A DNA stretch of 36,690 nucleotides, taken from UHGV virus genome UHGV-0304565. The stretch is one strand, 5' to 3'. How positions within the stretch are numbered: the stretch's first letter is position 1; the number at the start of each line of letters is the position of its first letter. The notes beneath the pieces are model-generated. The model searched no databases. It was not told the DNA's origin and worked only from the letters and a program-made list of their open reading frames with translations. Both the position numbers and the translations under genes were made by a program. This document shows positions 149 to 29,189 of the stretch, piece by piece. This DNA comes from a virus.

Positions 149-159
149 AGGAGATGAAG

Positions 160-402
160 ATGTTTGGAACAGCAAAAGAAATCATCGAGAAACTGAAAAA
201 CTATCCAGAAGACGAACCCTTACTCATGGTTATGTGGCACAAAGAAGATATTGCTGAAGTAAGGACAGATCTCACTGATGAACAATGCGTACAGGTGATG
301 CAAAAAATCAGACAATGCCATAACGCTGATGTCGGCGTTAATTGGGAGGTTATATCAACTACGGCGAATGAGTTGTTTCCGAACGGGGTGGTAAAATGCT
401 GA
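160..402 (+). CDS. Hypothetical early protein (80 aa)
   Basis: ORF track 154..402; ATG 160 preferred because SD taggag (148-153) abuts ATG 154 but sits 6 nt before ATG 160. No recognisable motif. Confidence 0.6.
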   Translation: MFGTAKEIIEKLKNYPEDEPLLMVMWHKEDIAEVRTDLTDEQCVQVMQKIRQCHNADVGVNWEVISTTANELFPNGVVKC

Positions 403-584
403 AACTCACCAAATTGTATAAGACGACAGTTAGTAGCCCTACCCTCGTTACACAGCATGGCTCTGAGTGTCTACCAAATATCTGTTTCGAGCACCATACG
501 ATCTCGGACTCAATTGGGTACAGAAACGGAGTATGGGGGAGTCAGGGGAGGGAAGAAAAGCTGCGTGATTACGGTGCCACATAG
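396..584 (+). CDS. Hypothetical protein (62 aa), start overlaps previous stop (ATGCTGA)
   Basis: ORF track entry; GGGGTGG SD-like sequence 6 nt upstream; start/stop overlap suggests translational coupling. No motif support. Confidence 0.3.
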   Translation: MLKLTKLYKTTVSSPTLVTQHGSECLPNICFEHHTISDSIGYRNGVWGSQGREEKLRDYGAT

Positions 585-696
585 CAAACCATCAAGAACA
601 TTCGAAAGGTGCTCGATGTAGGATTTGATGCGGTACAATTCCACCCTGACGCTGAAATAGACGATGGTCTGGAAAATTGGAAATTGTGAGGGATAA

Positions 697-1095
697 ATGA
701 AATATGCACCATTGGCACTAATATTTTTTGTGCTTTCTGCTAATGCCACGCCAGTTGAAGAGCCTAACACTATCGTGTACCCACGATGCATGAAAATAGA
801 TCCGGAAACACACAAGCAATTACCTGGTTACAATATTGTTATGGATATAGGGAATAAATTTAAAATCGTTTCCCCAAATGGGAATTCGGTGATATCCATC
901 TCGCTTGCCCAAAGTGAAAAAGATAGGAACATGTTCGACGCCTCAGTCGGCGATGTTTACTTCTCTCGTTACCATGTTCAACCTGATGGGAACTTTCTAT
1001 ACTCAGCCTGGAGTGAAAAGGCGAAAGTTACAGTGCTGTGTAATGGTAAAAGCGGTGAGCGGCATTACGTTGACCCTATTCATTTCGAGAACTGA
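697..1095 (+). CDS. Hypothetical secreted protein with Sec-type signal peptide (132 aa)
   Basis: N-terminus MKYAPLALIFFVLSANA-TPV: hydrophobic core plus A-x-A signal-peptidase site; SD gaggg upstream. Confidence 0.6.
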   Translation: MKYAPLALIFFVLSANATPVEEPNTIVYPRCMKIDPETHKQLPGYNIVMDIGNKFKIVSPNGNSVISISLAQSEKDRNMFDASVGDVYFSRYHVQPDGNFLYSAWSEKAKVTVLCNGKSGERHYVDPIHFEN

Positions 1096-1303
1096 CTACA
1101 CAAGTAAACAAATCAATCAGTTGATAATGGCGGTCACAATTTGATTCTTTCTATAAGAATCCGTTGATCGCCACTACTCTCCTTCCATACCTGCAACCAC
1201 ACCTTTAAATATCAATAGGTTAACGTTGTTTATACCAATAAGAAAACAACTAAATAACAGATCAACGAAACGTCAACGCTTTCACCCGATTTGGTCTAAA
1301 AAA

Positions 1304-1333
1304 TTGACGTTTTCACACACCACTGCTTATACC
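1304..1333 (+). promoter_or_regulatory. Putative sigma70-type promoter (-35 TTGACG, 18-nt spacer, -10 TATACC)
   Basis: Hexamers read directly at 1304-1309 and 1328-1333; it faces into the A+C-rich tract. Confidence 0.4.
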
Positions 1334-1505
1334 CGTAATTCTACGCAGCAGACAGCGCCACAGCGTCCAATTTTCACCACAGACGACCCAACACACTACC
1401 AACAAAAACACACGCTCAAAATCGCTCCCGTTGCGTTACATAACCATATAAACAACTTATTTTCAGGTATAACAAAACAACCAAATAACACATATGCCAT
1501 TACCA

Positions 1506-1590
1506 AAAACAACCAACCTCTTTATGGCAGGCTACCGAAAAGACCCACCTCTTCTTCCCAGGCTACCGGACAACCAACCTAACTTTCACA
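1506..1590. repeat. Copy A of a degenerate ~80-bp repeat (ACCAACCTCTT ... CAGGCTACCG ... ACCCACCT ... GGCTACCG ... AACTTTCAC)
   Basis: Aligns by eye at roughly 80 percent identity with 4683-4755. Confidence 0.5.
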
Positions 1591-2088
1591 GGCAATTCGA
1601 AACTTCCATACGCGCGATACCCACGACACGCCATTACCCAAACAGCGAAGAAACACCAGAATCACTGAAACCCCAACGAAGCCTGTAACCGCAAGGTTTC
1701 TCTCAATCCCAAAAGACACGAAACATAACAATCACGGGAAACGCCATTACCCAATACACGAATAACTACAAAAGCCCTTCACACACTCCAGACAAACAAC
1801 TCAAACACAATAACGAAAACAATCGCCCACCTGCCATTACTCCATATACGGAGAAGAACAATCACCAAAACGACGAGAACACCCCATAGAATAACCACCG
1901 CAAAACGAACGAAACCACATACACCGACAGAGAAAACAACACACCCAATTCACCAACAGAAATAGTCGCCGTATAGAACATTCTGGAAGGAGTGAGCATT
2001 AACGCCTATAGAGAGGTTGAGACAGATAAAACACGAAGAAAACACAACATGTATAGCGAAGAAGCCAGGTATGTATAAGTGGGGAGGG

Positions 2089-2113
2089 AAGGAGGGGTGT
2101 CGCCTCCTTTTTC
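2089..2113 (+). terminator. Intrinsic terminator
   Basis: Stem aaggagg (2089-2095) / cctcctt (2103-2109), 7-nt loop, T-run 2108-2112. Confidence 0.55.
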
Positions 2114-2175
2114 GTATTTATTCAACTACTGATTTTATCCCCCGTAACACCCCTACGGTCAGCCTTCGGTCCATA

Positions 2176-2310
2176 CAGGGAAAAGGCTGCATCCCGCTAC
2201 AGAAACGGCTGGGTTGCCTTCGGGGAACGGCTGGAGGTTTTCAGGGAAACGGTCGAGTTGCCTGTGTGGATTTCGGGAAAAGGCTCGATGCCGGTTCAGG
2301 AACGGCGGCG
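2176..2310. repeat. Iteron-like array A: six copies of cAGGGAAAcGGCTg-type repeats
   Basis: Copies start at 2176, 2199, 2221, 2242, 2274, 2297 (spacings 23, 22, 21, 32, 23 bp), roughly two helical turns apart. Confidence 0.6.
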
Positions 2311-2620
2311 TACCGGTATAGCGAGAGGGAGAGTTGCGGCTACCCACCTGTAATGTGCGGGAAGAAGAGAGGCGCTCACGTAGGCGGACTTGCTTACCGC
2401 TGGATTCCCTCTGAATGCCCAGCTACAGCGTAATTGTGCCAGAGAGTCAGCGGGTCACAATCGATTTCAGTAGGTTTTCGGGGAGAGGATTATTCTGCCC
2501 ACCAGCCACCTTCGGCCACTAAATCAGAATAATGTAAAAAGTGTTCTCGGTACTGAACCTGAAAACTCACTGCCAAAACCACATTCACCGGAATAAAATC
2601 CTTTTTCGCCTTTGCGTTAT

Positions 2621-2655
2621 TGCGATAATAACGCCAACAAGAAAACATGTTGTTT
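2621..2655 (+). promoter_or_regulatory. Early promoter-operator module: extended -10 TGcGATAAT (2621-2629) plus palindrome AAAACA-tg-TTGTTT (2642-2655)
   Basis: About 35 bp (CGATAATwAACrCCAACAAGAAAACA..TTGTT) is shared with 4772-4805. Confidence 0.5.
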
Positions 2656-2667
2656 AAGGATTGCTTT

Positions 2668-2997
2668 ATGTTTGCAAATATCGACATCAACCAAATCAAG
2701 AAATTAACTCAAAAAGAGTTTGATCAGTTTTATGAGTTAGAAGGTTGGTCTTCCACTCTGATTAATTCGCGGTGGGTGCTTGAGCTGATGACTCGTGATG
2801 ACGCACCTGCTTTGATGATTTGCGACATGGGTGAAGATGCTGACTTTATGGATATGAGCGAATTTTGTGTGGACACATACAACCGCAGCCAGAAGTACTA
2901 CTTCACATGCGATAGCGAGAATGACGTGATTTCTAAGGTCTATCTTCACCTTGTCCAGCATTGGGACGTTCAGGAGTTTCTTGAAGTATTCGCGTAA
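2668..2997 (+). CDS. Hypothetical strongly acidic early protein (109 aa)
   Basis: ORF track 2647..2997; ATG 2668 preferred (SD aagga 2655-2659, 8-nt spacing; ATG 2647 lies inside the palindrome). About 20 percent D+E. Confidence 0.55.
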   Translation: MFANIDINQIKKLTQKEFDQFYELEGWSSTLINSRWVLELMTRDDAPALMICDMGEDADFMDMSEFCVDTYNRSQKYYFTCDSENDVISKVYLHLVQHWDVQEFLEVFA

Positions 2998-3103
2998 CCT
3001 CAACCAAAGCCAGCATTGCTGGCTTAACTTCTCTGTGGCCGCAGGGAAGAACCTGCATATCGCTCATGCACCTGATCAATATGCTTTGTAGCCGTTTTCT
3101 TAC

Positions 3104-3139
3104 TGGTATTATTTACGCCATTGAGAAAACAAGTTGTTT
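3104..3139 (+). promoter_or_regulatory. Early promoter-operator module: extended -10 TGgTATTAT (3104-3112) plus palindrome AAAACAA-G-TTGTTT (3126-3139)
   Basis: Same -10-to-palindrome spacing as the other copies. Confidence 0.45.
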
Positions 3140-3150
3140 ACGGAGTTGTG

Positions 3151-3462
3151 ATGAAGAAATCATTGGTTCTTGGTCTGGACAAAGACCAGAAGAGAAAAGA
3201 GAAGCCTGCGCTGGTTGCTCAATTAACTTTGCTGGACATCGTTGCCAATGGAACCTCTATTCGTCTGTTCCGTGAAACAGCGGTGTCTTTCGATAAAAAC
3301 ACCTTTACTCGTTATGTAATGAATGTTCGTCGCCAGCGTGGAAAAGGCTGGGTGGCATTTCAAAGAATGTGGCCGGAACATCAGCTCGAACTGGCTTTGA
3401 TGGAAGTTAACCGCGTGGCCCAGCAAGAAATTCAGAGAGCATCAGTGATGGCAATAGCCTGA
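3151..3462 (+). CDS. Hypothetical early protein (103 aa)
   Basis: ORF track 3121..3462 starts on TTG inside the palindrome; ATG 3151 with SD acggag preferred. Confidence 0.5.
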   Translation: MKKSLVLGLDKDQKRKEKPALVAQLTLLDIVANGTSIRLFRETAVSFDKNTFTRYVMNVRRQRGKGWVAFQRMWPEHQLELALMEVNRVAQQEIQRASVMAIA

Positions 3463-3496
3463 TAATGTGCAAGTGGTAATTAGTCGACAGTACGAC

Positions 3497-3524
3497 AGCC
3501 CCGCCATCCTTACGGGGCTTTTTG
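3497..3524 (+). terminator. Intrinsic terminator
   Basis: Stem agccccg (3497-3503) / cggggct (3513-3519), 9-nt loop, T-run 3519-3523. Confidence 0.7.
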
Positions 3525-3587
3525 TATTGTAAGTACATACTTACGGTTATAAAATAGAAAAATAACCAAGACACTACGGAGAGTGAA

Positions 3588-3983
3588 ATGACCGTTAAAC
3601 GCGAAAAACTGACAGTTGATGTTTACTATGCCTCTGAAACCGCCGAAGGTAAGAATGTGGCAAAAATCACCGTTGTTACGTACAACACCGAAACTGGTGC
3701 CGAAGTCCAGGCCAGTACGATCGTGCGTAAAGGTGATGCCTCCGGCGGCGAGTACGCGACTCAATACCAGTCTATTTTCGATGCAACTGACCCGCTGCTG
3801 CTGAAAATCGAGAACTACTTCCGCCAGGTTGATGAAGAGGTGTTTGAAACCATGATGAATATGGTTAACACCGTATTCGCCTCCAGCCTGAATACCAACA
3901 CTACCTGGATTGGTCAGTACGGCCTGCGCATTACCTCCGGCATTCCTGCTGACACCTTAATCCCTGAAAGCGTATTCGCTTAA
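3588..3983 (+). CDS. Hypothetical early protein (131 aa)
   Basis: Strong SD ggagag 6 nt before ATG; flanked by terminators on both sides. Confidence 0.65.
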   Translation: MTVKREKLTVDVYYASETAEGKNVAKITVVTYNTETGAEVQASTIVRKGDASGGEYATQYQSIFDATDPLLLKIENYFRQVDEEVFETMMNMVNTVFASSLNTNTTWIGQYGLRITSGIPADTLIPESVFA

Positions 3984-3992
3984 TCCTCTTTA

Positions 3993-4020
3993 AATGGCGC
4001 GTAAACCGCGCCATTTTCTT
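3993..4020 (+). terminator. Intrinsic terminator
   Basis: Stem aatggcgcg (3993-4001) / cgcgccatt (4007-4015), loop taaac, then ttttctt. Confidence 0.7.
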
Positions 4021-4027
4021 ATGCCCG

Positions 4028-4042
4028 ATAACAATTTGTTTT
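4028..4042. promoter_or_regulatory. Palindromic element AtAACAA-T-TTGTTTT
   Basis: Family member upstream of the 4101 gene. Confidence 0.4.
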
Positions 4043-4100
4043 CTGCCTTATCTGATTTGTGAAAATGATTTCACTGAAGCAACTTAATAAGGAAACCATC

Positions 4101-4475
4101 ATGGGGCTTGATATCTACATCGAGACGCAGCCAAAAAACGATCTGAATAACGATACATCCAGAAAGCGGGTTGCTTACTTCCGTAAGTTCAATGCACTCG
4201 TTGGGTGGATGGAGCGCAACGTAGGTGAAGTCGAAAATTGTGAGCTTTTAGAATTAACGATGAATGACATTTGTCTTCTGAAAGCTCATTTGATGCACAT
4301 AAACGAAAGTAATTGCGAAGAGTACTTGCCTACCCGGGAAGGTTTTTTCTTCGGCAGTCAGGAGTACGATGAAGGTTACTGGCATGATGTGGGGGAGTTG
4401 AAAGAGCTTGTGGAAGATCTGATTAAGAACCACGACTTTCACAATAACAGACTGACCTTCTGCGCCTGGTGGTAA
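4101..4475 (+). CDS. Hypothetical early protein (124 aa)
   Basis: ORF track 4059..4475; ATG 4101 preferred (SD aagga 4090-4094, 6-nt spacing). Confidence 0.55.
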   Translation: MGLDIYIETQPKNDLNNDTSRKRVAYFRKFNALVGWMERNVGEVENCELLELTMNDICLLKAHLMHINESNCEEYLPTREGFFFGSQEYDEGYWHDVGELKELVEDLIKNHDFHNNRLTFCAWW

Positions 4476-4477
4476 AT

Positions 4478-4621
4478 ATGGGCGATTTCAAGAAACGCCT
4501 GAAGGAAAGAGCCGAGATGGTCAGAAAGCAAAACGCCTCTTCTGTCATCAGATACGCAAGGCAGTTTAGTCGCAACAACAAATCAGTTGAGGAAAAGATC
4601 CTTAGCGTAATCGGTCGATAA
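4478..4621 (+). CDS. Possible small protein (47 aa), absent from the ORF track
   Basis: ATG 2 nt after the previous stop; GGTGG 5 nt upstream; followed by hairpin aaggcca/tggcctt (4627-4650). Below the 60-aa track cutoff. Confidence 0.25.
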   Translation: MGDFKKRLKERAEMVRKQNASSVIRYARQFSRNNKSVEEKILSVIGR

Positions 4622-4682
4622 TTATTAAGGCCATCAGCATTGGTGGCCTTAAATGACCATCCTGTTTCCCGCAGGCTAAAAA

Positions 4683-4755
4683 CACCAACCTCTTACCTCC
4701 AGGCAACCGACAAACCCACCTGTTCCCGTCCGGCTACCGCAACTTTCCACTTTGA
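4683..4755. repeat. Copy B of the degenerate ~80-bp repeat
   Basis: See 1506-1590. Confidence 0.5.
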
Positions 4756-4805
4756 CGCCTTATTCGTACAACGATAATTAACACCAACAAGAAAACAATT
4801 TGTTA
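4752..4805 (+). promoter_or_regulatory. Early promoter-operator module: -35 TTGACG (4752-4757), -10 GATAAT (4773-4778), palindrome AAAACAA-T-TTGTTA (4792-4805)
   Basis: Hexamers and palindrome read directly; 15-nt spacer is suboptimal. Confidence 0.5.
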
Positions 4806-4825
4806 TTTACGATAAGGAATTAATC

Positions 4826-5308
4826 ATGAATTTTATCGCTACTGTAAACGCACCCGCACATGGCAATATCGCTGTAACGTTCTCTGACATTGAAAAACGA
4901 GTACTTGGTGCATGGCGCGACAATGAGACGGTAGAACTGTCAGCACAAGAAAAATGCATTATTGCACGCGACATCATTTGTAATTGTCGTTACTCGCGGG
5001 TAATTGAGAAAGCGTATGTGGTAAATTCTGGATTCGGAACGTTCGTCTTTCCGGTGCGCTCCGGGCGATTCTGCCAGTCCAAGCTGATTGAGTTCGCTAC
5101 GCAGATTTCTGTCTGGATTAAAACTCAATCGTCGTTCAAATTTTCCGACGATGAAGCATTATCGCAGGGGATGCGGATCGCCAACAATGCAATTAAATGC
5201 AAAAACATTACGTATACCGCTGGCGTTGATACATGGAAACTGTTTTGCGCTAACTTTATGCTGAATGTATACGCAAGCAACCGCATCCACATCCTTGATG
5301 GCGTGTAA
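4826..5308 (+). CDS. Hypothetical early protein (160 aa)
   Basis: SD aagga 7 nt before ATG; weak hairpin plus ttctct downstream (5319-5343). Confidence 0.6.
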   Translation: MNFIATVNAPAHGNIAVTFSDIEKRVLGAWRDNETVELSAQEKCIIARDIICNCRYSRVIEKAYVVNSGFGTFVFPVRSGRFCQSKLIEFATQISVWIKTQSSFKFSDDEALSQGMRIANNAIKCKNITYTAGVDTWKLFCANFMLNVYASNRIHILDGV

Positions 5309-5343
5309 CTGAGAAGAGGGCCAGAAACGGCCCTTTCTCTATA

Positions 5344-5475
5344 GCCACCAGCTGCCGCAGGGAAATTTTCAGAAACGGCGAGGAACGTATTCATGAGCCG
5401 ACGGGGAACGGCCAGGATTTTTTCGGGAAACGGCTGCATTCGCCTTTATATAGAAAAAACATCGGGAAGCTGGTG
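5344..5475. repeat. Iteron-like array B (GGGAAACGGC-type repeats) flanked by inverted Chi-like octamers
   Basis: Repeat copies at 5359, 5370, 5381, 5402, 5424, 5463 (11/22-bp phasing); CCACCAGC at 5344-5351 and GCTGGTGG at 5468-5475. Confidence 0.55.
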
Positions 5476-5845
5476 GAATCCAACCAGCGGTTGTCGGACA
5501 GGTGAGCGGGGAAAATTATGATGACTTTCGTCGCCTGAGACATCCAGATTTCTTTCGTAGCGTAATCACATACGTGATTAAGTGGTGTGATTATGTGAAA
5601 AATCACGCGCACATAATACGCGAGCGGATACGGAACAAAACAAAATGCCGATCCGCGCCGACAATTAAACGCGGATCACATAGCAAGAATAAAAGCCAAT
5701 GATTAACCATACACCATAACGCAATATAACGCGATTTAAGCGCGTTAATGCGCTAAGTAATGGGTATATACTGGTAAGGATATAAAAGCGCGTCTGTGGC
5801 GTTATTTTGGCGCTTATTTTATGTTGTTGGAGTGAGTTAAAGACA

Positions 5846-5873
5846 ATAAAAAACGCGCCAATGATGGCGCGTT
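5846..5873 (-). terminator. Intrinsic terminator (minus strand), first of a tandem pair
   Basis: Stem aacgcgcca / tggcgcgtt with loop atga; A-run on the plus strand 5846-5851 gives a U-run on the minus transcript. Confidence 0.6.
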
Positions 5874-5893
5874 ATGGTGGAAGTATTGGAAAC

Positions 5894-5918
5894 GAAAAAA
5901 GCGCCCATAGTGGGCGCT
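5894..5918 (-). terminator. Intrinsic terminator (minus strand, possibly bidirectional)
   Basis: Stem agcgccca / tgggcgct (5900-5918), loop tag, plus-strand A6 before and tttta shortly after; the same 19-mer recurs at 6396-6414. Confidence 0.6.
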
Positions 5919-5923
5919 CGATT

Positions 5924-6154
5924 TTATTTATGTAAACTGATTTCAAATCCCATTTCTACAAACGCTTTTAGCATTAAAAATATATCAGCGTCATTCACGT
6001 CTGCTTTTTTCCGCTCCTGGTCGCTCAATAAGTCAATTTTGCGCGTCGTTTCATCTATAAGCTCGACTGCGCGCCCAGCGTAACCAGCGATCCCAGCGAT
6101 GCGATTAACATAATATTCATTATGGACGTTAACGCCAGCGATAAGAACAAACAT
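5924..6154 (-). CDS. Hypothetical protein (76 aa)
   Basis: SD aaggag upstream on the minus strand; last gene before the tandem terminators. Confidence 0.55.
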   Translation of the reverse strand: MFVLIAGVNVHNEYYVNRIAGIAGYAGRAVELIDETTRKIDLLSDQERKKADVNDADIFLMLKAFVEMGFEISLHK

Positions 6155-6174
6155 GATTAAGCTCCTTAAAAAAA

Positions 6175-6378
6175 TTAAACAGAATTTTGAAGTTTTCCGA
6201 TTAATGCGCTTAAACGTAAATATTCACGTTTACGCTTACAATCTCGTTTACTGTTAAGCAAATCAGAAAACGTAAAATTTAATTGGTCGCGTTGCGCGAT
6301 CAAATCATCGATTAATTCCAGTTTATAAGCGCGATACTTTGCGCGATATTCCGCGCGGATCTTGTCATAGCTGACCAT
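6175..6378 (-). CDS. Hypothetical protein (67 aa)
   Basis: ORF track 6175..6423; internal ATG at 6378 preferred because the first 15 codons span the 19-bp hairpin and an SD aggag precedes the second ATG. Confidence 0.5.
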   Translation of the reverse strand: MVSYDKIRAEYRAKYRAYKLELIDDLIAQRDQLNFTFSDLLNSKRDCKRKREYLRLSALIGKLQNSV

Positions 6379-6426
6379 TTTTAAAGCTCCTTTAAAGCGC
6401 CCATAGTGGGCGCTTGATTCCATTAA

Positions 6427-7077
6427 TTACGCTTTGAAAGCATCAGCTAAATAATTGTAGAAATCATTTTTAATGAAGCGATATTGCTGAGTACCAGCTT
6501 TCGCGCTCCCAGCTCCTTTGACTTTTTCAACAAGTCCGAGACGTTCGCAAAGATTGATCAACTGGTTGGCTTGAGTATAGCCAGCGTCCAATTTAATCTC
6601 GCACGCTTTTTTGGCTTCATTCATTAAATCGAAAACAGCGCCATTCGTGAACGTGTCGATCTCGTCGTTAATCATATCGATTAAAGCGAATACACGAGAT
6701 CCAGACATATCAGCGACGGAATAAACACACTTTCCAGCTTTAATGGATTTAACCAGATAAACCAGTTTTTCCAGTGAATAACTATTAGTCATAGCATCAC
6801 GGAAAAATACTTCTGGCGCTTGTTTGCTTGCTTTAATTGCATAGTAGAAAACAGAGCATAATTTTTCGTCTTCAACAGCGTTTACAACGTTGTTGATGAA
6901 GTAAGCAAGTTTAGTGGTTGCAGCTTGCATATTTGCTTTGTCTGCTTTAGTGTGCGTACCATTTTTATAATGTTCGTTATATGTTTGAGTTGCCAGATCT
7001 GCTTTTTCGCGCAGCTCGTCGGATACAATGGCAGCAGCTTCAATGATGGATTTTTTAGAAATGATAATGTTAGCCAT
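6427..7077 (-). CDS. Hypothetical protein (216 aa) with a helix-turn-helix-like C-terminal segment
   Basis: SD aagga 8 nt upstream; C-terminal YTQANQLINLCERLGLVEKVKG looks like a DNA-binding helix pair (pattern judgement only). Confidence 0.55.
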   Translation of the reverse strand: MANIIISKKSIIEAAAIVSDELREKADLATQTYNEHYKNGTHTKADKANMQAATTKLAYFINNVVNAVEDEKLCSVFYYAIKASKQAPEVFFRDAMTNSYSLEKLVYLVKSIKAGKCVYSVADMSGSRVFALIDMINDEIDTFTNGAVFDLMNEAKKACEIKLDAGYTQANQLINLCERLGLVEKVKGAGSAKAGTQQYRFIKNDFYNYLADAFKA

Positions 7078-7374
7078 GATTTTATTCCTTAGTATAAATA
7101 TTAAAATTTAACTCAAGAAAGAAAGTGTTTTGCACTCGTTCCTGATGCGTTCAATTATCGATACGCGAAAAAAGATTGCAAGTGTTTTTTTAAGTTTTTT
7201 TGCAGGTATGAAAGTCCTAGAAATAAAAGCTAGATCGTCGAAGGTGTTCCCTAAATAAATAATAAATTCCGGCTTTTGACCTTATATATTTATACGGGGG
7301 AGAATTGAATGAGTGTTAAACGAATGGCATGTAAAATAATAACCGGACTTAGCCGGTTATTACCCTTATAGAAA

Positions 7375-7896
7375 TTAAAACGGAAGGATTCGTTCAACCC
7401 AATCGAAGAAAATAAGTATTTTTCTACCGTCTTCCAACTTAAGTGTGACTAGACAGGCGTCAACGCCATCTGACGTTCCCTCAATTTCGCGACCGTCTGC
7501 CATGTAGACCCTTATAGATTTGCCGTTTTGGTAAGCCTGACGACATATCTTAAAAAAGTCACGACGTGATGGCTGATTAACCATCTGTTCATTGTTTAGC
7601 GTTAGTCGACCTGTGAATGAAGTGTCAACCTCTTCTATGCCCGACTCAATTGTGCTAATGCGCTCAAGAGGGAGCCTTATACGATTTGTGTTGCTAAGCG
7701 GATCTGGTGTGAGGTTCAGCTTATTTCTTGCGCTCAATAGCCCGTAGACATACATGCAAAACACTTGGCCGTCTTCGAGAGTGACTCTTACAGGAAATTT
7801 TGCACTCCGCCAGAAGAGCAAGGTGCGCTCAGCATGTTCGTAGTCTCGCGGCCAGACTTCAGCCGGTATGCCGTAGGTGATGTCCAATGTTCTCAT
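7375..7896 (-). CDS. Hypothetical protein (173 aa)
   Basis: Start overlaps the stop of the upstream gene (ATGA); hairpin aataaccgg/ccggttatt downstream at 7338-7365. Confidence 0.55.
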   Translation of the reverse strand: MRTLDITYGIPAEVWPRDYEHAERTLLFWRSAKFPVRVTLEDGQVFCMYVYGLLSARNKLNLTPDPLSNTNRIRLPLERISTIESGIEEVDTSFTGRLTLNNEQMVNQPSRRDFFKICRQAYQNGKSIRVYMADGREIEGTSDGVDACLVTLKLEDGRKILIFFDWVERILPF

Positions 7897-8486
7897 TCTG
7901 ATACTCTTAGAGGTGTTTTCAGCAACCCAAATTTAAATTCTTTGTTACCAACGACAAAGAAGGGAACCTCAACATAGATTTTTTTATCGACGGATTTAGA
8001 GTTCGCTGTTTTCTGTATGTCACGAACGATACGTTTTGAGATATTTTCATCGATAAACAATACCTTTCCATTTGTATTCCCTTCAGCCTTGGCGTAAGTA
8101 ACGATAGGCTCTTCATTGCCAACCCTAATGTTTACTTGGCAACCTGTTGTAGCCATTTCATCACAGTAAAGTGTGCCGTCTTGAACTTCCAAAACAATTC
8201 CAGATGGCTTCATGGCTTCGTCAGAGCTTACATTAACGTTTTCTGGTACAGCGGTCCCGTTAATTTGCAACCGTAATCTTTCTTTTCCTGCATTAAGTAT
8301 TGTTTCTTCTGCGTTATCTGAGAATCTGAACCAGACTGGTTGAATCAGACCTCGTGATTCGTATTTTAGTACGTCTTCAGAAGTATACATGCTGTACGTT
8401 TTTTGCATGTCGGAGACGATATCTGACAACGCATTTGCGGAAAATGACGAGAGGTATATACAAGCAAGAAGTAACGAACGTTTCAT
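7893..8486 (-). CDS. Hypothetical secreted/periplasmic protein (197 aa)
   Basis: N-terminus MKRSLLLACIYLSSFSANA-LSD: signal peptide with A-x-A cleavage site. Confidence 0.6.
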   Translation of the reverse strand: MKRSLLLACIYLSSFSANALSDIVSDMQKTYSMYTSEDVLKYESRGLIQPVWFRFSDNAEETILNAGKERLRLQINGTAVPENVNVSSDEAMKPSGIVLEVQDGTLYCDEMATTGCQVNIRVGNEEPIVTYAKAEGNTNGKVLFIDENISKRIVRDIQKTANSKSVDKKIYVEVPFFVVGNKEFKFGLLKTPLRVSE

Positions 8487-8666
8487 TTTTATACAGCGAT
8501 TGTTGCAAAGTAGAATTATAAATATCCAATAGTCTCAAACGATAAGTTTTCAACTGTAAATAGCAGACGTGTTTCTCTAAAAGCTGTGCGGCAAAGGCGT
8601 TGTTGCCGCACTCTGTCTATTAGCTCTTCAAGTCTGGCAATTCTGAAATTGACTAAGAATCCAATA

Positions 8667-8945
8667 TTACGGCAGTTTGCTTAGAATTTGCTCTAAATCT
8701 TCCTTTGTCATATTAGAGTTCTCATAGATGCGCATGATTTTCTCACGAGCCTTAGCAGAGACTCCAACGGCAGATGAAACTTTGTCAAATTCAGCCATTG
8801 TCATCGCTTCCAGAATGGTATTGATAACTTCAGCCTTAGACATTTTGATGTTTTTTTCTTTTAGTTTCATTTGAAACTTTCCAAGTTTGTCATTGGCCTT
8901 ATCGGACAATGCCACCTGACAATAAGTTGTTTTCTTTTCGCTCAT
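8667..8945 (-). CDS. Hypothetical small protein (92 aa), possible DNA-binding regulator
   Basis: Starts 2 nt after the helicase stop; hairpin plus T-run downstream on the minus strand (8588-8612). Confidence 0.5.
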   Translation of the reverse strand: MSEKKTTYCQVALSDKANDKLGKFQMKLKEKNIKMSKAEVINTILEAMTMAEFDKVSSAVGVSAKAREKIMRIYENSNMTKEDLEQILSKLP

Positions 8946-8947
8946 AA

Positions 8948-10507
8948 CTAATCTCGTTTCAGAACTCCAAAATCGAATGCGCCATCAATAGGCAATACAC
9001 CTTCTGCAAAGCCAGGTGTGGTGTCGATGATGTGTTTTCGCTCATAAGAGTGAGACAACAGGTATTTGTTGCTAATGTCAATGAAATCAGTGATAAAACA
9101 CACGTTTGCCTGATTCTTCTTGGCTCGTAAGCCACGACCGACACGCTGCCTCATTTCAACTTCTGCTTTCCCACCACCAGCCAGAATGACCGCACCAACG
9201 CTTGGCACATCAACACCGACATCCAGAATAGTCGAGCCTATTAAAACATCTATTTCGCCAGACGCTAAACTGTTCAGCTTTGCTTGCCTTGTCGCCTGGT
9301 TCGATTCCCCATAGATGAAGTCAACTCTAAGGCCGGACTCCTTCATCATCTCCATCAGGATTTGCCCGTGGCGTTTAAGACGAACCAGAGTCATGCAATT
9401 GAGAGAATGTTGCTTATAGAGCAATGCTTCGCGCACAATGGCCTCGTTACGTCCCAAATTATACACGATCCCCAACTGATAAGCCTTTTGGTAGGCTGTG
9501 CTCATACCTACTCTAAAATTAAGGTGTTTGTTGGCAAGTTCCGCCTTGATTCTGACCTCGTCTGGCTTGTAAGCAACTTTATGATAAAGGAAGTACGGTT
9601 TTGCCAGAATGCCTCGATCAATCAGGTACTTTTCTGTGACTTTAATTTCAATTCGCCCGGCCACCGCCATCAGGCGCATGTTGGCTTCCGTCGAATCCTT
9701 CATGAACGGCGTGGCTGTAAGCGCCAGACGATAGTCTGCGTTCACACATAATCTGGCGATGTCATAGAAATTTGAGCCTGAAGACTCATGCGCCTCTTCC
9801 AGAATAAGAAGAGAGACACTTGAAAGGAAGCGTTTCACCAACTCCCGACGTTTGAGGTGGTAGCTCTTTTTATCTGGTGTTGCATCGCGTGGTGGTTCTT
9901 CAAGGAAACTTGCCAGAGTTTGAACTGTAGCGACGTTGATATGTCGTGATACCTGGAACTCACCCGAGCCAATGACTCCAACCTTTTGGTCTTTTAACCA
10001 CGGTTCGCCATTTTCGGCGCGGTAGTCGATGGATCTCTGGAAGTTTTCGGCCATTTGAAACATCAGAACAGAGCGGGTTGTTAAAAATAATGTCATTCGA
10101 CCGATACGTGCAGCTGCTTTGCAGGCAACGTTAGATTTCCCGCCACCAGTAGCGATCTGCGCAATCATCATTCCCTCTCGAACCAGTGTTTCCACAGTCT
10201 GATCCTGATACGCATAATCAGGATTGTATGGGAATGGGTTAACCGCCGGATTTGGTTTTCCAAGCGCCGGGGCTTTGTCTTTGCGGATATGAACACATTT
10301 GATGCCCGCCTTGTTCAAGTTCGCCGCTACAGGCTTGGCAAAGCCAGCAGGGAACGAGTTTTTACTCCAGTTGAACATCGTGCTTGTGCCCTTCCAGTCG
10401 CCAGTCTCGACTTCGTAGCTCAACATTTGCTGCACCAGTTGCTTTACCTTGTCATCTGCGCCAGAAATAAGCGCATTTACTGCGTTAGATACAATCCGAA
10501 CAGTCAT
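8948..10507 (-). CDS. Superfamily-2 DEAD/DEAH-box helicase (519 aa)
   Basis: Walker A ATGGGKS, DExH-like LILEEAHESSG, motif VI QRVGRGLR; SD aaggaaagagg upstream. Confidence 0.8.
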   Translation of the reverse strand: MTVRIVSNAVNALISGADDKVKQLVQQMLSYEVETGDWKGTSTMFNWSKNSFPAGFAKPVAANLNKAGIKCVHIRKDKAPALGKPNPAVNPFPYNPDYAYQDQTVETLVREGMMIAQIATGGGKSNVACKAAARIGRMTLFLTTRSVLMFQMAENFQRSIDYRAENGEPWLKDQKVGVIGSGEFQVSRHINVATVQTLASFLEEPPRDATPDKKSYHLKRRELVKRFLSSVSLLILEEAHESSGSNFYDIARLCVNADYRLALTATPFMKDSTEANMRLMAVAGRIEIKVTEKYLIDRGILAKPYFLYHKVAYKPDEVRIKAELANKHLNFRVGMSTAYQKAYQLGIVYNLGRNEAIVREALLYKQHSLNCMTLVRLKRHGQILMEMMKESGLRVDFIYGESNQATRQAKLNSLASGEIDVLIGSTILDVGVDVPSVGAVILAGGGKAEVEMRQRVGRGLRAKKNQANVCFITDFIDISNKYLLSHSYERKHIIDTTPGFAEGVLPIDGAFDFGVLKRD

Positions 10508-24260: not shown

Positions 24261-24610
24261 TTTCCCGCGATGAATCCGGGACAAGGACCGTCTCAATAGA
24301 TCTCGGATTCTATTTCAGTCGTGTAGTTGCTCACTACGCCGTGTCGCCATTAGAGCTACTGAACGTTCCTCTCACGATGTTCTGGATGCTCAGTCGCAAT
24401 ATAGACCGTCTGCGTGCGGAAGAGGATGTCCGCAACTTACAAGTCGCTCGTGCGTCCCAGGCGGATGGCGAGGCTGTGAAGGCGTTCATGGAGGGTTTGC
24501 AACTCAGGATTGGAAGACCAGTCGTAACAGATAAAGTCTACGATCCAAGCCAGGATAAGGCAGACCCTGACGCCAAAGAGCAACTGATGCAAATATTTGG
24601 CAGAGGATGA
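23943..24610 (+). CDS. Tail assembly chaperone GT-like fusion made by a programmed -1 frameshift near 24231-24260
   Basis: The -1 frame is open from 24224 to 24610 and overlaps the end of G; candidate slip sites gAAAAAg (24231-24237) or AAG-TAA (24255-24260). Confidence 0.5.
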
Positions 24611-24617
24611 CAAGGGA

Positions 24618-27600
24618 ATGTCACAAAACGTAGAGTTTATCCTGTCGCTGGAAGACAAACAGTTTACAGCGTCAATCGATCGTGCGGGGAAACTGCTTAC
24701 TCGATTTGGTGAGCAGGTAACAAAGCCTGCTCAAAAAATCCAAACCTTTGAACGCTCTTTGGGTTCGGTCGCCCGTATTATTGGCGTTCTGGAAAGCAAG
24801 CTCGATTCTACGGCAGATAAACTACAGGATGTAGCTGCCGGTTTTGAGCTTGCTTCAGATGCTACGCGTAAAATGCGTGGCAACATCACCAGCCTCAATT
24901 CTGGTCTTAAAGCCCTGATTGAGCGCGTCGATACGACAACTTCTTCAGTAGATAAACTCACCGCGTCATTACGTAAAGTGCAATCAGAGCTAAATGATTT
25001 CTCTGATTGGGCGACCTATGCAAGCAAAAGCGCAAGCCGCTTTGGTACGGAGGTCAAAGAAGCCTCTGCGTCCGTGAGTGGCATGAATACGCGTCTTAAT
25101 GCCACGACGAAGCGACTCAGTAATTGGGGTGTCACAACGAGTCAGGCTGCCGAGGGACTGAAAAAGGTTCGTGAGCAGATGGACGAAGTTATCGGACGTC
25201 AGCAACTGATTAGCAAGCCGGTACGCGTTCGTACATCTGGAAGTGGCGATGGTGGTAGCGGGCGGCGTAGCGGCGCTTCTGGCCATAGCGGTAAAAGTAA
25301 CGAAGGAGGTATGTTCTCTGGCCTTCGTGGCAACATTTTCCTGCTTGGCGAGATCGGAGATGCAGCCAGAACGGTTACTGACATCATGTTTGGGTGGCAG
25401 AAGCCTATTGTTGAAGCTGCGGCCGAAATGGAACGTATGCGGGTGATGCTTCGAGGGTTGAATAAGGAGAAGTCCAACCCGGGCCAGGCTGCCGCTGATG
25501 ATATGAAGTACATCGTAGACATGGCTCAAAATGCGCCGTTCGCGATGCAGGCGTTAACAGACTCCTTCGTGAAGTTTCGTTCTGCTGGCTTAGATCCAAC
25601 CGATGGTTCTCTGAAGGCGCTGGTGGACTCCGTTGCTCGTTTTGGTGGTGATAGTGAGCTGTTGAAACGTGCGGCTGTGGCCGTTCAGCAGATGTCCGGT
25701 AAGGGCGTTGTGTCAATGGAAGAGCTACGTCAGCAATTAGGTGAAGCCGTTCCTAACGCGATGCAGGCAATGGCAGACGCCGCAGGCATCACTATGGGGG
25801 AACTAACTAAAGCCGTTGCCAGCGGTACGGTTGAGGCAAAGCAGGCGTTGTCTCTGATGTTTGTTGGTCTGCGTGCGGAGAACGAGAACGCAGCGAAAGA
25901 CATGATGCAAACCTACACAGGTGCGCTGGCGCAACTTCAGACGTCATTCACGTTATTTGCTGATCGAGTTGGTCAGGCTGGATATCTGGATTCTCTATCA
26001 AAGGGGATGAAAGAACTGGCTTCAATCATGAATAGCGCCGAAGGGATTTCGTTTGCCAATTCTTTAGGTTCGGGGTTAACGACGGCAATCGATGGGTTGC
26101 GTCAGCTTGCTCAATGGTTAGCAAAGAACCAAGAGCTGGTAATTAATCTCGGTAAGGTCGTGGCCGCGATGGTTGCGTTCAAACTGATGCGAGCAGGGAT
26201 CATGGGGGTAGTTGGCGCTGGCAGCCAGATGGTTAGCACCTTTGCCACGATGGCGACCGCCATACAGACTCCATTTAACCTCGGCGCTACAGCAGTAACT
26301 CGATTCAATCGTGCGGCACGTATGGGGTTGGCTCCGATCCCCTCTCTTATTTTCGCCATCCGTGGGGCGATTACGGGGCTTAAAGGTGCTTTTGCAGGAT
26401 TAACGGCGTTCATTGCAGCAAACCCTATAGGGGCAGCATTTACAGTTGCCACTGTAGCTGTTGCTGGCCTAATCACGTACATGACCATGCTCCGCAGCGA
26501 AACTTCAAAGGTCGTTGACGAGATTAGGAAAATACCAGAAGCGATGACAGCGGCCAAACGTGCACAAATGGCCGACCGCGCAGAAAAGCTCGAAAAGCAG
26601 ATTCTTGCTGATCAACGAGCATTAAAAACTGGTGAGGGTGTTAATTACGTATCTAACTCTGCCGGTGTTATTACTCACAAAGAGTCGAAGGCTGACATCG
26701 AAGCTCGCCTGAAAAAAAATCAGGAAGAGTATCAAAAGATAACCGGCACGATAGCTCTTGGTGACGGCGCTGTAGCAAAGCGTTTGGCTAAAGAGGCTGC
26801 CGAATCTCAGATTGAGAAAATTCGAGCGGAAAACCAGATTTTCGCGGCAACATTCGTGAAGGCCCGGCAGGAGGCTCTGGAGAAGATCCAGAAAATCAAT
26901 GATGACAGTTCACTTTCAGATGATGAAAAGAACAAGCTATTGGCACCGTTACGTGAAACGGTAAACAAAAGCTATCTGGAGCCTGCGCAAAAACTGGTTG
27001 ATTCACTTTCTTCTCGTAAGAATGCGACCGAGAAGCAAATCGCGACTCTTAATGATCAGCTTGAAAAAGCCAAAAAGGATGGAAATACCGAGCAGATCCA
27101 GAAACTGCAAGGCAGTATTCGTGGTTATCAGGAGCATTTGGAAACCGTTGCTCAGGAACTGACTCAGGCAGAGTTCGAGAGAGATAACGCGGCCAAAACT
27201 GGTAAGGGCGTGATGTCAAACCAGGGGACTGTTCTTGGGTTAGGTACAACTGATAAAGCTGCTCAGAAGGCGCTGGCGCAATATATGCGAAACCAGATGG
27301 ATTCTGCGACTTATCAGCGTACTTTGCCTGACGGCACTCCGATGATGGACTTCGAAGGTAAGCCTATTATTGGGCCTAAACAACTCAAGACGCAGCTTAA
27401 TTTGCAGAAAGCATCCAGTGCCAGCTCTCTGGAGAAAATGAGCGATGAAGAGCGTGCCGCAGCCATTGCTGCACTGACTAAAGCTCGTGAACAGGATGCC
27501 GCAGCCGCCGAGAAAGCCGCCCAACGATCAGCTAATGCTTCGCAGCGTGCGGCCAAGAAGGAACAGGCAGCGCAACAGAAACTGGCAGCCGGATACCAGA

Positions 27601-29189
27601 AGGCTCTGGACAAAGCCGATCAGCTTATGGGGCAAATGGGTGAAAGCTCTAAGGCTACGGTATCGTTTGATCAGTCTCTTCGCGATACAACGAAATCGCT
27701 GACAGATTTGGCTAATGCGGTTCCTAACGAGTTCATCACTCAAGAGATGATCGACAAGGCGAAAAAACGTCTTGAAGACCTCAAAAATGCGACACCTGAA
27801 TATCGCGAGATGTTTAATCGCCGCAATGTTGAGCAGATGATCTCCACTTGGGCACCGGAGGCGGATTCCATTATTAGTGCTGGCTATACGCCGTCTCGCG
27901 AAGAGAAAGTTGCTGATTTCGAAGACACCTACAACCGCAATCTCAAAGCGTTGATAGAACTTCGTGATAAGGCGTCTGATCCTAAAGTTGTGGCGCTTTA
28001 TACAAAGAAAATCAATCAACTGATTGCTGCTGGCAATACCGCGCTCATTAAAGAGACAGGGACTGCGACGCAGAAGTTGGCACTGGAATACGAAAACCTG
28101 GCAGAGCAGATCGAAAGCACCTGGACTGACTTGTTTAGTGGCTTAACGGATGTCCTGACTGATTTCGTTATTAACGGGAAGATGAGCTTCTCCAGCCTGT
28201 CTCAGTCCATTTTGAAAGATATCACCAATATGGTCGTGAAGTCGCAGATCACGCTGCCTCTAATGAACATGTTGGGGATGGGAACCACCGCAGCTGGTAG
28301 TTCACAGAGTGGTAATTTGCTCACCGGGGTTGCTTCCGCAGTTGCCAATCAAGGTGTGCGCATAAGCAACACTGTTAATGGCGACAAGTCGGTAGGAGAA
28401 GCCACGAAGGAGACGTCCAGTTCGGTAACTGGATTGGGGCAAACGACACAGCAGACCACCAGCGCAATTGGCACAGCAACAAATGCGATTGGTAGCTGGG
28501 TATCAGGGCTATTTGATAGCACCGAAGCCAAAGATGCTGAGACAAAAGCAGTGAAGGATTCCATCTTCTCGATGCAGAACCTCAGCTCTGTTACCGGTGC
28601 TCTGTCTGCCGCGTTTGCAATGCTTGGAGCTAATGCTTCCGGCTCTGGTAATAAGTGGTTGAATTTCGGCGCGACAGTTGCATCTGGGTTGGTTTCAGTA
28701 TGGGCAGGTGGTGGATTCGATGGATTGATGTCCGGTTCTTCTGGCTCAACTTCCGGGTTCAACAATCTGACCAGTTCTGCTGCCGATGGCACGAATGGTA
28801 TTCCTGCAATTCCGAAGTTTGCAAATGGTGGCATATTCGGAAAAGACGGCGTGATCCCGCTCCGGGCATACCAGAAAGGCGGTATCGCCAACTCACCTCA
28901 ATTGGCGTTGTTTGGGGAAGGCGATATGAATGAGGCGTATGTTCCATTGCCTGATGGTCGAACAATCCCTGTAACGCTCAGTACCGATGGTATGAGTGGA
29001 GGAGGAAATGTTCTTTCTCCGGTATCAATTGAGATCAACGTCCATAGTGACGGTAGCACAACTGAATCCGGCGATACAGAAAGCATATGGAACAATGCCG
29101 CTCAACGGATGAAAGCAATCGCGCTTGAGACTATCGCTCAAGAGAAACGCCCTGGCGGATCACTCAACCCAAACACTCAACGTAACTAA
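24618..29189 (+). CDS. Tail tape measure protein (about 1523 aa)
   Basis: Very long alanine-rich helical protein with a hydrophobic central segment; position after G/GT. ORF track starts at TTG 24597. Confidence 0.85.
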   Translation: MSQNVEFILSLEDKQFTASIDRAGKLLTRFGEQVTKPAQKIQTFERSLGSVARIIGVLESKLDSTADKLQDVAAGFELASDATRKMRGNITSLNSGLKALIERVDTTTSSVDKLTASLRKVQSELNDFSDWATYASKSASRFGTEVKEASASVSGMNTRLNATTKRLSNWGVTTSQAAEGLKKVREQMDEVIGRQQLISKPVRVRTSGSGDGGSGRRSGASGHSGKSNEGGMFSGLRGNIFLLGEIGDAARTVTDIMFGWQKPIVEAAAEMERMRVMLRGLNKEKSNPGQAAADDMKYIVDMAQNAPFAMQALTDSFVKFRSAGLDPTDGSLKALVDSVARFGGDSELLKRAAVAVQQMSGKGVVSMEELRQQLGEAVPNAMQAMADAAGITMGELTKAVASGTVEAKQALSLMFVGLRAENENAAKDMMQTYTGALAQLQTSFTLFADRVGQAGYLDSLSKGMKELASIMNSAEGISFANSLGSGLTTAIDGLRQLAQWLAKNQELVINLGKVVAAMVAFKLMRAGIMGVVGAGSQMVSTFATMATAIQTPFNLGATAVTRFNRAARMGLAPIPSLIFAIRGAITGLKGAFAGLTAFIAANPIGAAFTVATVAVAGLITYMTMLRSETSKVVDEIRKIPEAMTAAKRAQMADRAEKLEKQILADQRALKTGEGVNYVSNSAGVITHKESKADIEARLKKNQEEYQKITGTIALGDGAVAKRLAKEAAESQIEKIRAENQIFAATFVKARQEALEKIQKINDDSSLSDDEKNKLLAPLRETVNKSYLEPAQKLVDSLSSRKNATEKQIATLNDQLEKAKKDGNTEQIQKLQGSIRGYQEHLETVAQELTQAEFERDNAAKTGKGVMSNQGTVLGLGTTDKAAQKALAQYMRNQMDSATYQRTLPDGTPMMDFEGKPIIGPKQLKTQLNLQKASSASSLEKMSDEERAAAIAALTKAREQDAAAAEKAAQRSANASQRAAKKEQAAQQKLAAGYQKALDKADQLMGQMGESSKATVSFDQSLRDTTKSLTDLANAVPNEFITQEMIDKAKKRLEDLKNATPEYREMFNRRNVEQMISTWAPEADSIISAGYTPSREEKVADFEDTYNRNLKALIELRDKASDPKVVALYTKKINQLIAAGNTALIKETGTATQKLALEYENLAEQIESTWTDLFSGLTDVLTDFVINGKMSFSSLSQSILKDITNMVVKSQITLPLMNMLGMGTTAAGSSQSGNLLTGVASAVANQGVRISNTVNGDKSVGEATKETSSSVTGLGQTTQQTTSAIGTATNAIGSWVSGLFDSTEAKDAETKAVKDSIFSMQNLSSVTGALSAAFAMLGANASGSGNKWLNFGATVASGLVSVWAGGGFDGLMSGSSGSTSGFNNLTSSAADGTNGIPAIPKFANGGIFGKDGVIPLRAYQKGGIANSPQLALFGEGDMNEAYVPLPDGRTIPVTLSTDGMSGGGNVLSPVSIEINVHSDGSTTESGDTESIWNNAAQRMKAIALETIAQEKRPGGSLNPNTQRN

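Follow-up and report, generated by a model that had tools for sequence, protein, structure and literature searches.

Small proteins that are directed to the bacterial envelope and act on the carrier cell are known from several phages. Llp of T5 and Cor of phi80, N15 and HK022 are outer-membrane lipoproteins encoded beside receptor-binding genes, and Sp and Imm of T4 are membrane proteins. The products of morons are often envelope proteins, and morons of the classical kind have a promoter and a terminator of their own. Protection against agents other than phages has known parallels in PliC/MliC, in Tsi-type immunity proteins and in lambda Bor. In fljB-fljA, a surface-protein gene is followed by the gene of its repressor partner. 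Here we compare with these systems two genes, P1 and P2, found in a stretch of 36,690 nucleotides (nt) from the virus genome UHGV-0304565 (hereafter the window, the whole stretch of DNA that was analysed). Both are predicted to encode exported proteins, and P2 lies directly upstream of a gene for an FljA-like protein.

Judging from nucleotide identities over its first 12 kb, the window represents an SSU5/pMT1/pHCM2-type phage-plasmid of E. coli. These identities are 95–97% over most of the length with Escherichia phages CMS-2020a, PhiR41_1 and Cyrano, and ~80% with Salmonella phage SSU5 and Klebsiella phage-plasmids. The closest positional analogue of P2 is the lipoprotein of 140 amino acids (aa) of SSU5 (SSU5_122) and pMT1, which is encoded in the position and orientation of P2, directly upstream of the FljA-like gene (gap of 4 nt; 85 nt in the SSU5 annotation). 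Like P2, it is uncharacterised and predicted to be exported to the envelope. Unlike P2, it is a true lipoprotein (LLLSAC, signal peptidase II), with an unrelated sequence and a weak resemblance to DUF2846. P1 and P2 resemble Llp, Cor, Sp and Imm in being small, predicted envelope-targeted products of non-structural, non-lysis genes, but they differ in being putative soluble substrates of signal peptidase I, in having no detectable homology to these proteins and in being encoded far from tail genes. They also resemble lambda bor and lom, morons in the sense of Hendrix and colleagues, as single-gene insertions of patchy presence with a lower G+C content (GC) than their flanks. In contrast to a classical moron, P2 is embedded in an apparent operon and coupled, it seems, to the next gene, and no private promoter or terminator was evident for P1 or P2. 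P1 resembles MliC/PliC and Tsi1 (small periplasmic beta-barrel inhibitor or immunity proteins) in its size, signal peptide, modelled all-beta architecture and Cys pair. By analogy, what P1 and P2 would share with morons, Llp and Cor is only a general logic, that of a small envelope-targeted accessory product.

Our overall best explanation, to which we incline with slightly better than even confidence, is that P1 and P2 are unrelated accessory (moron-like) cargo, predicted to be exported by Sec, cut by signal peptidase I and to act as soluble periplasmic conversion factors. Both open reading frames (ORFs) lie where the original prediction had placed them, with the N-termini that it quoted. P1 occupies positions 697–1095 on the plus strand (132 aa; the product is predicted to be exported and belongs to an orphan family), and P2 occupies positions 7893–8486 on the minus strand, the strand having been left unsaid in that prediction (197 aa; a predicted exported protein of the narrow family phrog_18942). 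They are real genes under purifying selection, because the ratio of nonsynonymous to synonymous substitution rates (dN/dS) is 0.12 for P1 and 0.13–0.23 for P2. The value for P1 comes from the comparison with its Enterobacter ortholog, in which substitutions at codon positions 1, 2 and 3 number 13, 9 and 40; that for P2 comes from close relatives. P2 diverges faster than core genes of the same pairs, with 46–58% identity compared to 90–93% for the helicase and 82–88% for a 216-aa protein, and its gene-wide dN/dS gives no sign of positive selection. P1 is preceded by a GAGGG Shine-Dalgarno sequence at 688–692, 4 nt 5′ of its ATG.

Both families are small. That of P1 comprises 5 protein clusters among 5.8 billion, no known relative is less than 72% identical, and a profile search with P1 added zero new relatives. 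That of P2 comprises 14 clusters. An exhaustive search with a hidden Markov model profile of P2 found 8 representatives among 1.84 billion proteins, and the sole remote relative in this set was P0024 (E-value 5e-6). P1 and P2 appear, from their sequences, to be two new orphan families of predicted exported envelope proteins.

The original prediction had proposed that both products carry a Sec signal peptide ending in SANA, with an A-x-A cleavage site. Our signal-peptide calls are rule-based only (n/h/c anatomy and the −3/−1 rule), and export is predicted from sequence. The rules ask for a positive n-region and an uninterrupted hydrophobic h-region of ~7–15 residues. The c-region should be polar and free of Pro between −3 and +1, and its residues at −3 and −1 should be small and neutral. 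Both proteins conform to these rules, including the lack of Pro. In P1, the predicted signal peptide MKYAPLALIFFVLSANA (697–747, plus strand) has the n-region MK (+1), a 13-residue uncharged stretch and A at −3 and −1. It is parsed as MK / YAPLALIFFVL / SANA, and signal peptidase I would cleave after residue 17, before T18, giving a mature protein that starts with TPVEE. In P2, the predicted signal peptide MKRSLLLACIYLSSFSANA (8430–8486, minus strand) has the n-region MKR (+2), a 14-residue uncharged stretch and again A at −3 and −1. It is parsed as MKR / SLLLACIYLSSF / SANA, with predicted cleavage after residue 19, before L20, and LSDIV as the mature start. Across both families the hydrophobic cores measure 13–16 residues and are therefore too short for a membrane-spanning anchor. 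In a crude rule-based scan of the window, 14 of 133 ORFs of at least 60 aa were flagged, and among these P1 and P2 are the only genuine genes with a compact signal peptide of 16–19 residues. In the remaining 12 the N-termini are atypical and cleavage is predicted at residues 22–31; most of these ORFs are short and lie inside or opposite longer ones.

Conservation among orthologs agrees with this anatomy. The signal peptide is retained in P1 orthologs down to 72% identity. In distant P2 orthologs (down to 46% identity overall) the signal-peptide segment is only 21–53% identical, yet a positive n-region, an h-region of 14–16 residues and an [A/V/T]-x-A that precedes [L/V/I]-S-D are kept by all full-length members. 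A signal peptide, MNKKYTLVATPLLVISGFSQA before DW (junction ...GFSQA/DW), likewise stands at the start of the remote relative P0024, which keeps the C-x7-C motif. This persistence of the P2 features despite divergence is the strongest argument that the predicted signal peptides of P1 and P2 are functional, and both proteins are very probably exported. Each full-length member of either family has two Cys, and no more, in its mature part (a 97-aa fragment, P0020, has zero), which would fit one probable periplasmic disulfide in each protein. In databases, the phrog_18942 profile and several entries of the P2 family (including P0009) start at an internal Met, which corresponds to Met27 of P2 or lies just before the cleavage site.

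Other routes to the envelope were considered for both proteins. A lipobox was defined as [LVI][ASTVI][GAS]C closing the h-region, its Cys being conserved and ~15–35 residues from the start. No functional lipobox was found in P1, which has no Cys before residue 31, or in P2, as the original prediction had noted. P2 as a lipoprotein by way of Cys9 (LLLAC) was rejected: this Cys is misplaced at residue 9, within the h-region, and is not conserved, being absent from the Klebsiella and Salmonella orthologs. A search for the twin-arginine translocation motif (S/T-R-R-x-F-L-K, preceding the h-region) found no RR in either N-terminus. An outer-membrane beta-barrel is likewise not indicated, as neither protein has a C-terminal aromatic residue (they end in ...HFEN and ...RVSE), and the model of P2, with a 15-residue helix and a sandwich-like core, is unlike an outer-membrane barrel of at least 8 amphipathic strands. 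A common origin of the SANA shared by P1 and P2 was also rejected (BLASTP E-value 0.021 over 39 residues; hhalign probability 0.3%). In relatives of P2 the corresponding position reads SVNA, SAYA, SAHA, STFA or SQA. On this sequence evidence the SANA match is a coincidence within the A-x-A rule and P1 and P2 are unrelated.

Comparison with related elements locates both genes in variable DNA. P1 lies in a cassette at 154–1105 (plus strand) that also carries an 82-aa gene and a decayed DUF5983-like gene. Positions 1–153 and 1106/1121–2700 match Cyrano and PhiR41_1 at 92–97%, whereas 154–1105 is unmatched there and has a 72% match to an Enterobacter phage-plasmid. In Cyrano, the position of the P1 cassette is held by a gene for a 244-aa coiled-coil protein. 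The P2 cassette (the gene and a 180-nt upstream spacer; 7886–8663, minus strand) has conserved genes on both sides. PhiR41_1 is 99% identical to the window over 7000–7885 and 92% over 8664–9100, but has no counterpart of 7886–8663 and carries other cargo in this slot. Both cassettes thus defined have sharp boundaries. The GC is 41.9% in P1 and 39.4% in P2, compared to 46.6% in the window. P1 and P2 are almost certainly discrete low-GC accessory cassettes in variable slots. Between genes that are adjacent in relatives, and with a deviating composition, they behave like moron-type insertions.

Prevalence was counted by tblastn against PLSDB. P1 was found in 24 plasmids, from E. coli, Enterobacter, Salmonella and Citrobacter; these are of ~95–126 kb, with one of 218 kb, and all except one are non-mobilizable. 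P2 was found in 65 plasmids, and NZ_CP010144.1 carries P1 as well as P2. The neighbouring FljA-like gene was found in 831, including plasmids of Klebsiella, Salmonella and Cronobacter and pMT1 of Yersinia pestis. Relative to these 831, the share is ~3% for P1 and ~8% for P2, and both have a narrow host range, within Enterobacterales phage-plasmids. The original prediction had assigned the two genes to the early and replication regions rather than to lysis or structural ones. Their position outside the packaging, head and tail block is borne out, but the term 'early', which suits a classical phage, needs correction: the element is an SSU5-like phage-plasmid, and the two genes are rare accessory cassettes in it.

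Two observations were made beside P1. The DUF5983-like gene directly 5′ of it (396–690, plus strand) is decayed, with an in-frame TAG replacing a Trp of its ortholog and an internal frame shift relative to the intact 106-aa Enterobacter gene, while P1 itself is intact. Upstream of the P1 region in an Enterobacter relative (L014), positions 3936–4634 (plus strand) encode a 232-aa exported protein, with the N-terminus MKNILLASLLVASPAAYA followed by AS, that weakly matches PF07007 (LprI, lysozyme inhibitor). Several envelope-targeted genes are present in the accessory region of SSU5-like elements.

The surroundings of P2 are more regular. Its stop codon overlaps the start codon of the FljA-like gene (7375–7896, minus strand), the sequence ATGA at 7893–7896 serving both. 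The latter is a core gene whose product matches PF03614 ('repressor of phase-1 flagellin') over its full length (Pfam E-value 1.4e-68). The upstream boundary of the variable slot is a conserved gene for a 92-aa protein (phrog_1466; 8667–8945, minus strand). P2 is directly upstream of the FljA-like gene in elements of E. coli, Klebsiella and Salmonella, with overlap or abutment kept, and the ATGA overlap suggests that the two are probably translationally coupled. In one relative (L016), the C-terminal part of P2 is 99% identical to that of the window while the FljA-like protein is 76% identical. The idea that the two genes are inherited as one unit was therefore rejected, as their alleles recombine independently, and the linkage is, by these sequences, positional and not obligate.

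The same slot holds different genes in other elements. A lipoprotein of 139–140 aa (lipobox LLLSAC, LITAC or LIGC) fills the position of P2, in the same orientation, in SSU5, in Y. pestis pMT1 and in Enterobacter, Salmonella and E. coli plasmids. P2 as a diverged copy of this usual occupant was rejected (hhalign probability 0.3%). In Cyrano, PhiR41_1 and Cronobacter, the slot contains a divergently oriented gene for a lipoprotein of 259–266 aa, and in one Klebsiella plasmid a divergent gene for a 145-aa lipoprotein. Small proteins with signal peptides, of 99, 103 and 117 aa, are encoded just downstream or nearby (within ~1 kb). The gene of P0024 is in the same slot on the opposite strand, and there (in relative L011) a gene for a cytoplasmic 183-aa protein abuts the FljA-like gene. 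Counting all of these unrelated families, P2 and its remote relative included, at least one exported protein is encoded between the 92-aa and FljA-like genes in 11 of 12 sampled relatives (L001–L027). The slot is a recombination hotspot, usually though not always holding a gene for an envelope-targeted protein. Between the 92-aa gene and P2, a G+C-rich hairpin at 8586–8611 (assigned to the minus strand, its stem listed on the plus strand) has only a short run of T after it and may be a partial terminator.

Structure prediction gave models of low confidence, because the alignments are shallow. AlphaFold2 modelled mature P1 as an all-beta meander or barrel (predicted local distance difference test score, pLDDT, 65.6) and mature P2 as a beta-sandwich-like core with one helix (pLDDT 53.8). 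The first 50 residues of the P2 model are of very low confidence, yet conservation within the family is highest there. No match at an E-value of 0.001 or below was obtained for either model with Foldseek against BFVD. Weak fold matches were with small beta-barrels and with Ig-like sandwiches, folds that are typical of extracytoplasmic proteins. The modelled folds, which are beta-rich, would suit soluble binding proteins outside the cytoplasm, and are no more specific than that. Matches of both proteins in PHROG were to families of unknown function only, and sequence profiles of the PDB gave nothing for P2 and chance-level matches for P1. No assignment of function to P1 or P2 is possible by homology, and a literature search found nothing on either of them.

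The preferred explanation, that of soluble periplasmic conversion factors, can be worded as a sequence of steps. Each protein would be made in the plasmid-carrying cell with a cleavable N-terminal signal peptide and exported by Sec. Cleavage by signal peptidase I after ...SANA would free a small, soluble protein in the periplasm, mostly of beta structure and probably with one disulfide. P2, if coupled to the FljA-like regulator through ATGA, would be made whenever the regulator is made. As a best guess, the proteins would act as lysogenic-conversion factors that bind a component of the carrier envelope, or an incoming foreign factor, and thereby protect the carrier; exclusion of other phages would be one possible outcome of such protection. 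We infer this functional class because of the context of the genes and the usual roles of exported non-lysis phage proteins.

Several results weigh against this explanation. Searches of Pfam (E-value up to 0.1), NCBIfam and PADLOC assigned P1 and P2 to 0 families, and no homology to exclusion, defence, immunity or inhibitor families was found. No consensus sigma-70 promoter was seen upstream of P1 or of P2 (minus strand examined for the latter), and the sequence upstream of the P2 start has no recognisable Shine-Dalgarno. One divergent Klebsiella element is without an exported gene beside its FljA-like gene. Finally, starts of the Met27 type would delete the signal peptide of P2 from the annotation. 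The conservation of the in-frame hydrophobic segment upstream argues, on the other hand, that these internal starts are start-codon miscalls.

The original prediction, reasoning that periplasmic phage proteins outside the lysis cassette are commonly superinfection-exclusion or receptor-masking factors, pointed to a narrower role: P1 and/or P2 would block adsorption or DNA entry from the periplasm, as is the case for FhuA with Llp of T5 and Cor of phi80/N15. This idea is plausible and a reasonable prior among several, but as the actual role of the proteins we regard it as unlikely, if deserving of a serious hearing. In its favour, both are accessory genes for predicted exported proteins and lie outside the lysis and structural modules, and the lambda-J-like central tail fibre of the element suggests an outer-membrane protein as receptor. 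In SSU5 and pMT1 the occupant of the slot belongs to the lipoproteins, as do Llp and Cor, and the faster evolution of P2 relative to core genes (46–58% versus 90–93% for the helicase) would suit such a role. The proteins themselves, however, show no similarity to known exclusion proteins or PADLOC models and, as predicted soluble substrates of signal peptidase I, are unlike the known lipoprotein or membrane examples. Neither gene adjoins receptor-binding genes, and the gene-wide dN/dS well below 1 carries no sign of positive selection. Self-exclusion, moreover, would predict a core gene, whereas P1 and P2 are present in only 3–8% of relatives.

A second alternative is conversion that serves host fitness or virulence, with P1 and P2 as periplasmic binders or inhibitors directed against lysozyme, type VI peptidoglycan hydrolases or bacteriocins. 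We think it improbable that this is their role. The carriers are gut and clinical Enterobacterales, and the exported protein with the weak LprI match is encoded in the neighbouring region of the Enterobacter relative; yet Pfam detects no MliC, Ivy or other family in P1 or P2, and no gene for a cognate toxin is nearby.

The recurrent slot admits a further interpretation, by analogy with fljB-fljA. A dedicated exported-protein slot beside the gene for the FljA-like RNA-binding repressor, filled across the SSU5/pMT1/pHCM2 family by non-orthologous displacement with P2, the 140-aa lipoprotein or further lipoproteins or proteins with signal peptides, might constitute a surface-switch module; we find this quite doubtful. 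If it were true, an envelope factor of the plasmid would be made while a competing surface component of the host (e.g. flagellin) is translationally repressed, and the phage susceptibility or the immune recognition of the carrier would be altered. In the form specific to this locus, which has a low probability in our judgement, P2 and the FljA-like gene would be a two-gene surface-remodelling module in which translation of host flagellin is repressed and P2, translated together with the repressor, acts in the periplasm on the flagellar or envelope apparatus. The overlap or abutment conserved across E. coli, Klebsiella and Salmonella, the exported protein in the same position in most sampled relatives and the likeness to the fljB-fljA architecture speak for it. 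But unrelated proteins, one of them cytoplasmic, can take the place of the upstream partner, the remote relative of P2 is encoded on the opposite strand and uncoupled, the two alleles recombine independently (99% versus 76% in L016), and one relative is without any exported neighbour. In addition, pMT1 keeps the gene pair in Y. pestis, which is non-motile. A literature search found no paper on the role of the FljA-like gene in SSU5-type elements.

Lastly, it is improbable that the N-termini are not cleaved signal peptides and that P1 and P2 are cytoplasmic (through a downstream start) or membrane-anchored: the PHROG profile and some entries do begin at Met27 of P2, whose ribosome-binding site is weak, but the extension of every full-length ortholog, and that of the remote relative, is in frame and hydrophobic and leads to A-x-A, the h-regions of 13–16 residues are too short to anchor, P1 has a good Shine-Dalgarno at its proposed start, and the paired Cys fit an oxidising compartment.

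The layout of the window is as follows. Small accessory and regulatory genes and a DEAD-box helicase gene occupy 0–10.5 kb, two ParB-like genes and genes for ABC-type ATPases occupy 10.5–13.7 kb, and genes for the terminase, the portal, the head, the tape measure and the lambda-J-like central tail fibre occupy 14.2–36 kb. P1 and P2 are both within the non-structural part. P2 is the third gene of a leftward co-directional run that comprises, in order, the genes for the helicase, p92, P2, the FljA-like protein, p216, p82 and p76, and that ends at strong terminator-like hairpins at 5852–5919. They are a pair of perfect, G+C-rich hairpins that adjoin each other and have T tails (both strands; one of the two is readable on either strand), and they mark the end of the leftward run and face a rightward cluster. 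Scanning the window for Rfam families and tRNAs gave no matches.

Further observations concern other parts of the element. Downstream of P1, ~1.5 kb at 1100–2600 (plus strand) are strongly strand-asymmetric and C/A-rich (GC skew −0.35, AT skew +0.33), with three ~31-nt direct repeats at 1507–1600. This may be an iteron, centromere or origin-like region; Rfam gave no match within it. An ORF at 1226–1582, for which Cyrano and PhiR41_1 have a hypothetical-protein annotation, is probably non-coding because its translation is a low-complexity peptide. In the structural block, residues 239–550 of the 1530-aa tape measure protein (24597–29189, plus strand) match the endolysin-annotated phrog_1768 (E-value 3e-42), which suggests a peptidoglycan-hydrolase domain inside this protein. 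Phage Cyrano (OV696614.1) and the plasmid of E. coli LF82 (NC_011917.1) are each 108,379 bp long; presumably the former is pLF82 in its virion form.

Two hypothetical proteins with signal peptides are in themselves an ordinary feature of the genomes of temperate phages and mobile elements. A modest lead, and the only aspect that we consider worth following up, is that the FljA-like gene is repeatedly found paired with one for an exported protein. SSU5-like phage-plasmids (including pMT1 and pHCM2) are widespread in clinical E. coli, Klebsiella, Salmonella and Yersinia, and P1 and P2, together with the habitual pairing of the FljA-like gene with an exported protein, provide concrete candidates for lysogenic-conversion or exclusion phenotypes in these bacteria.

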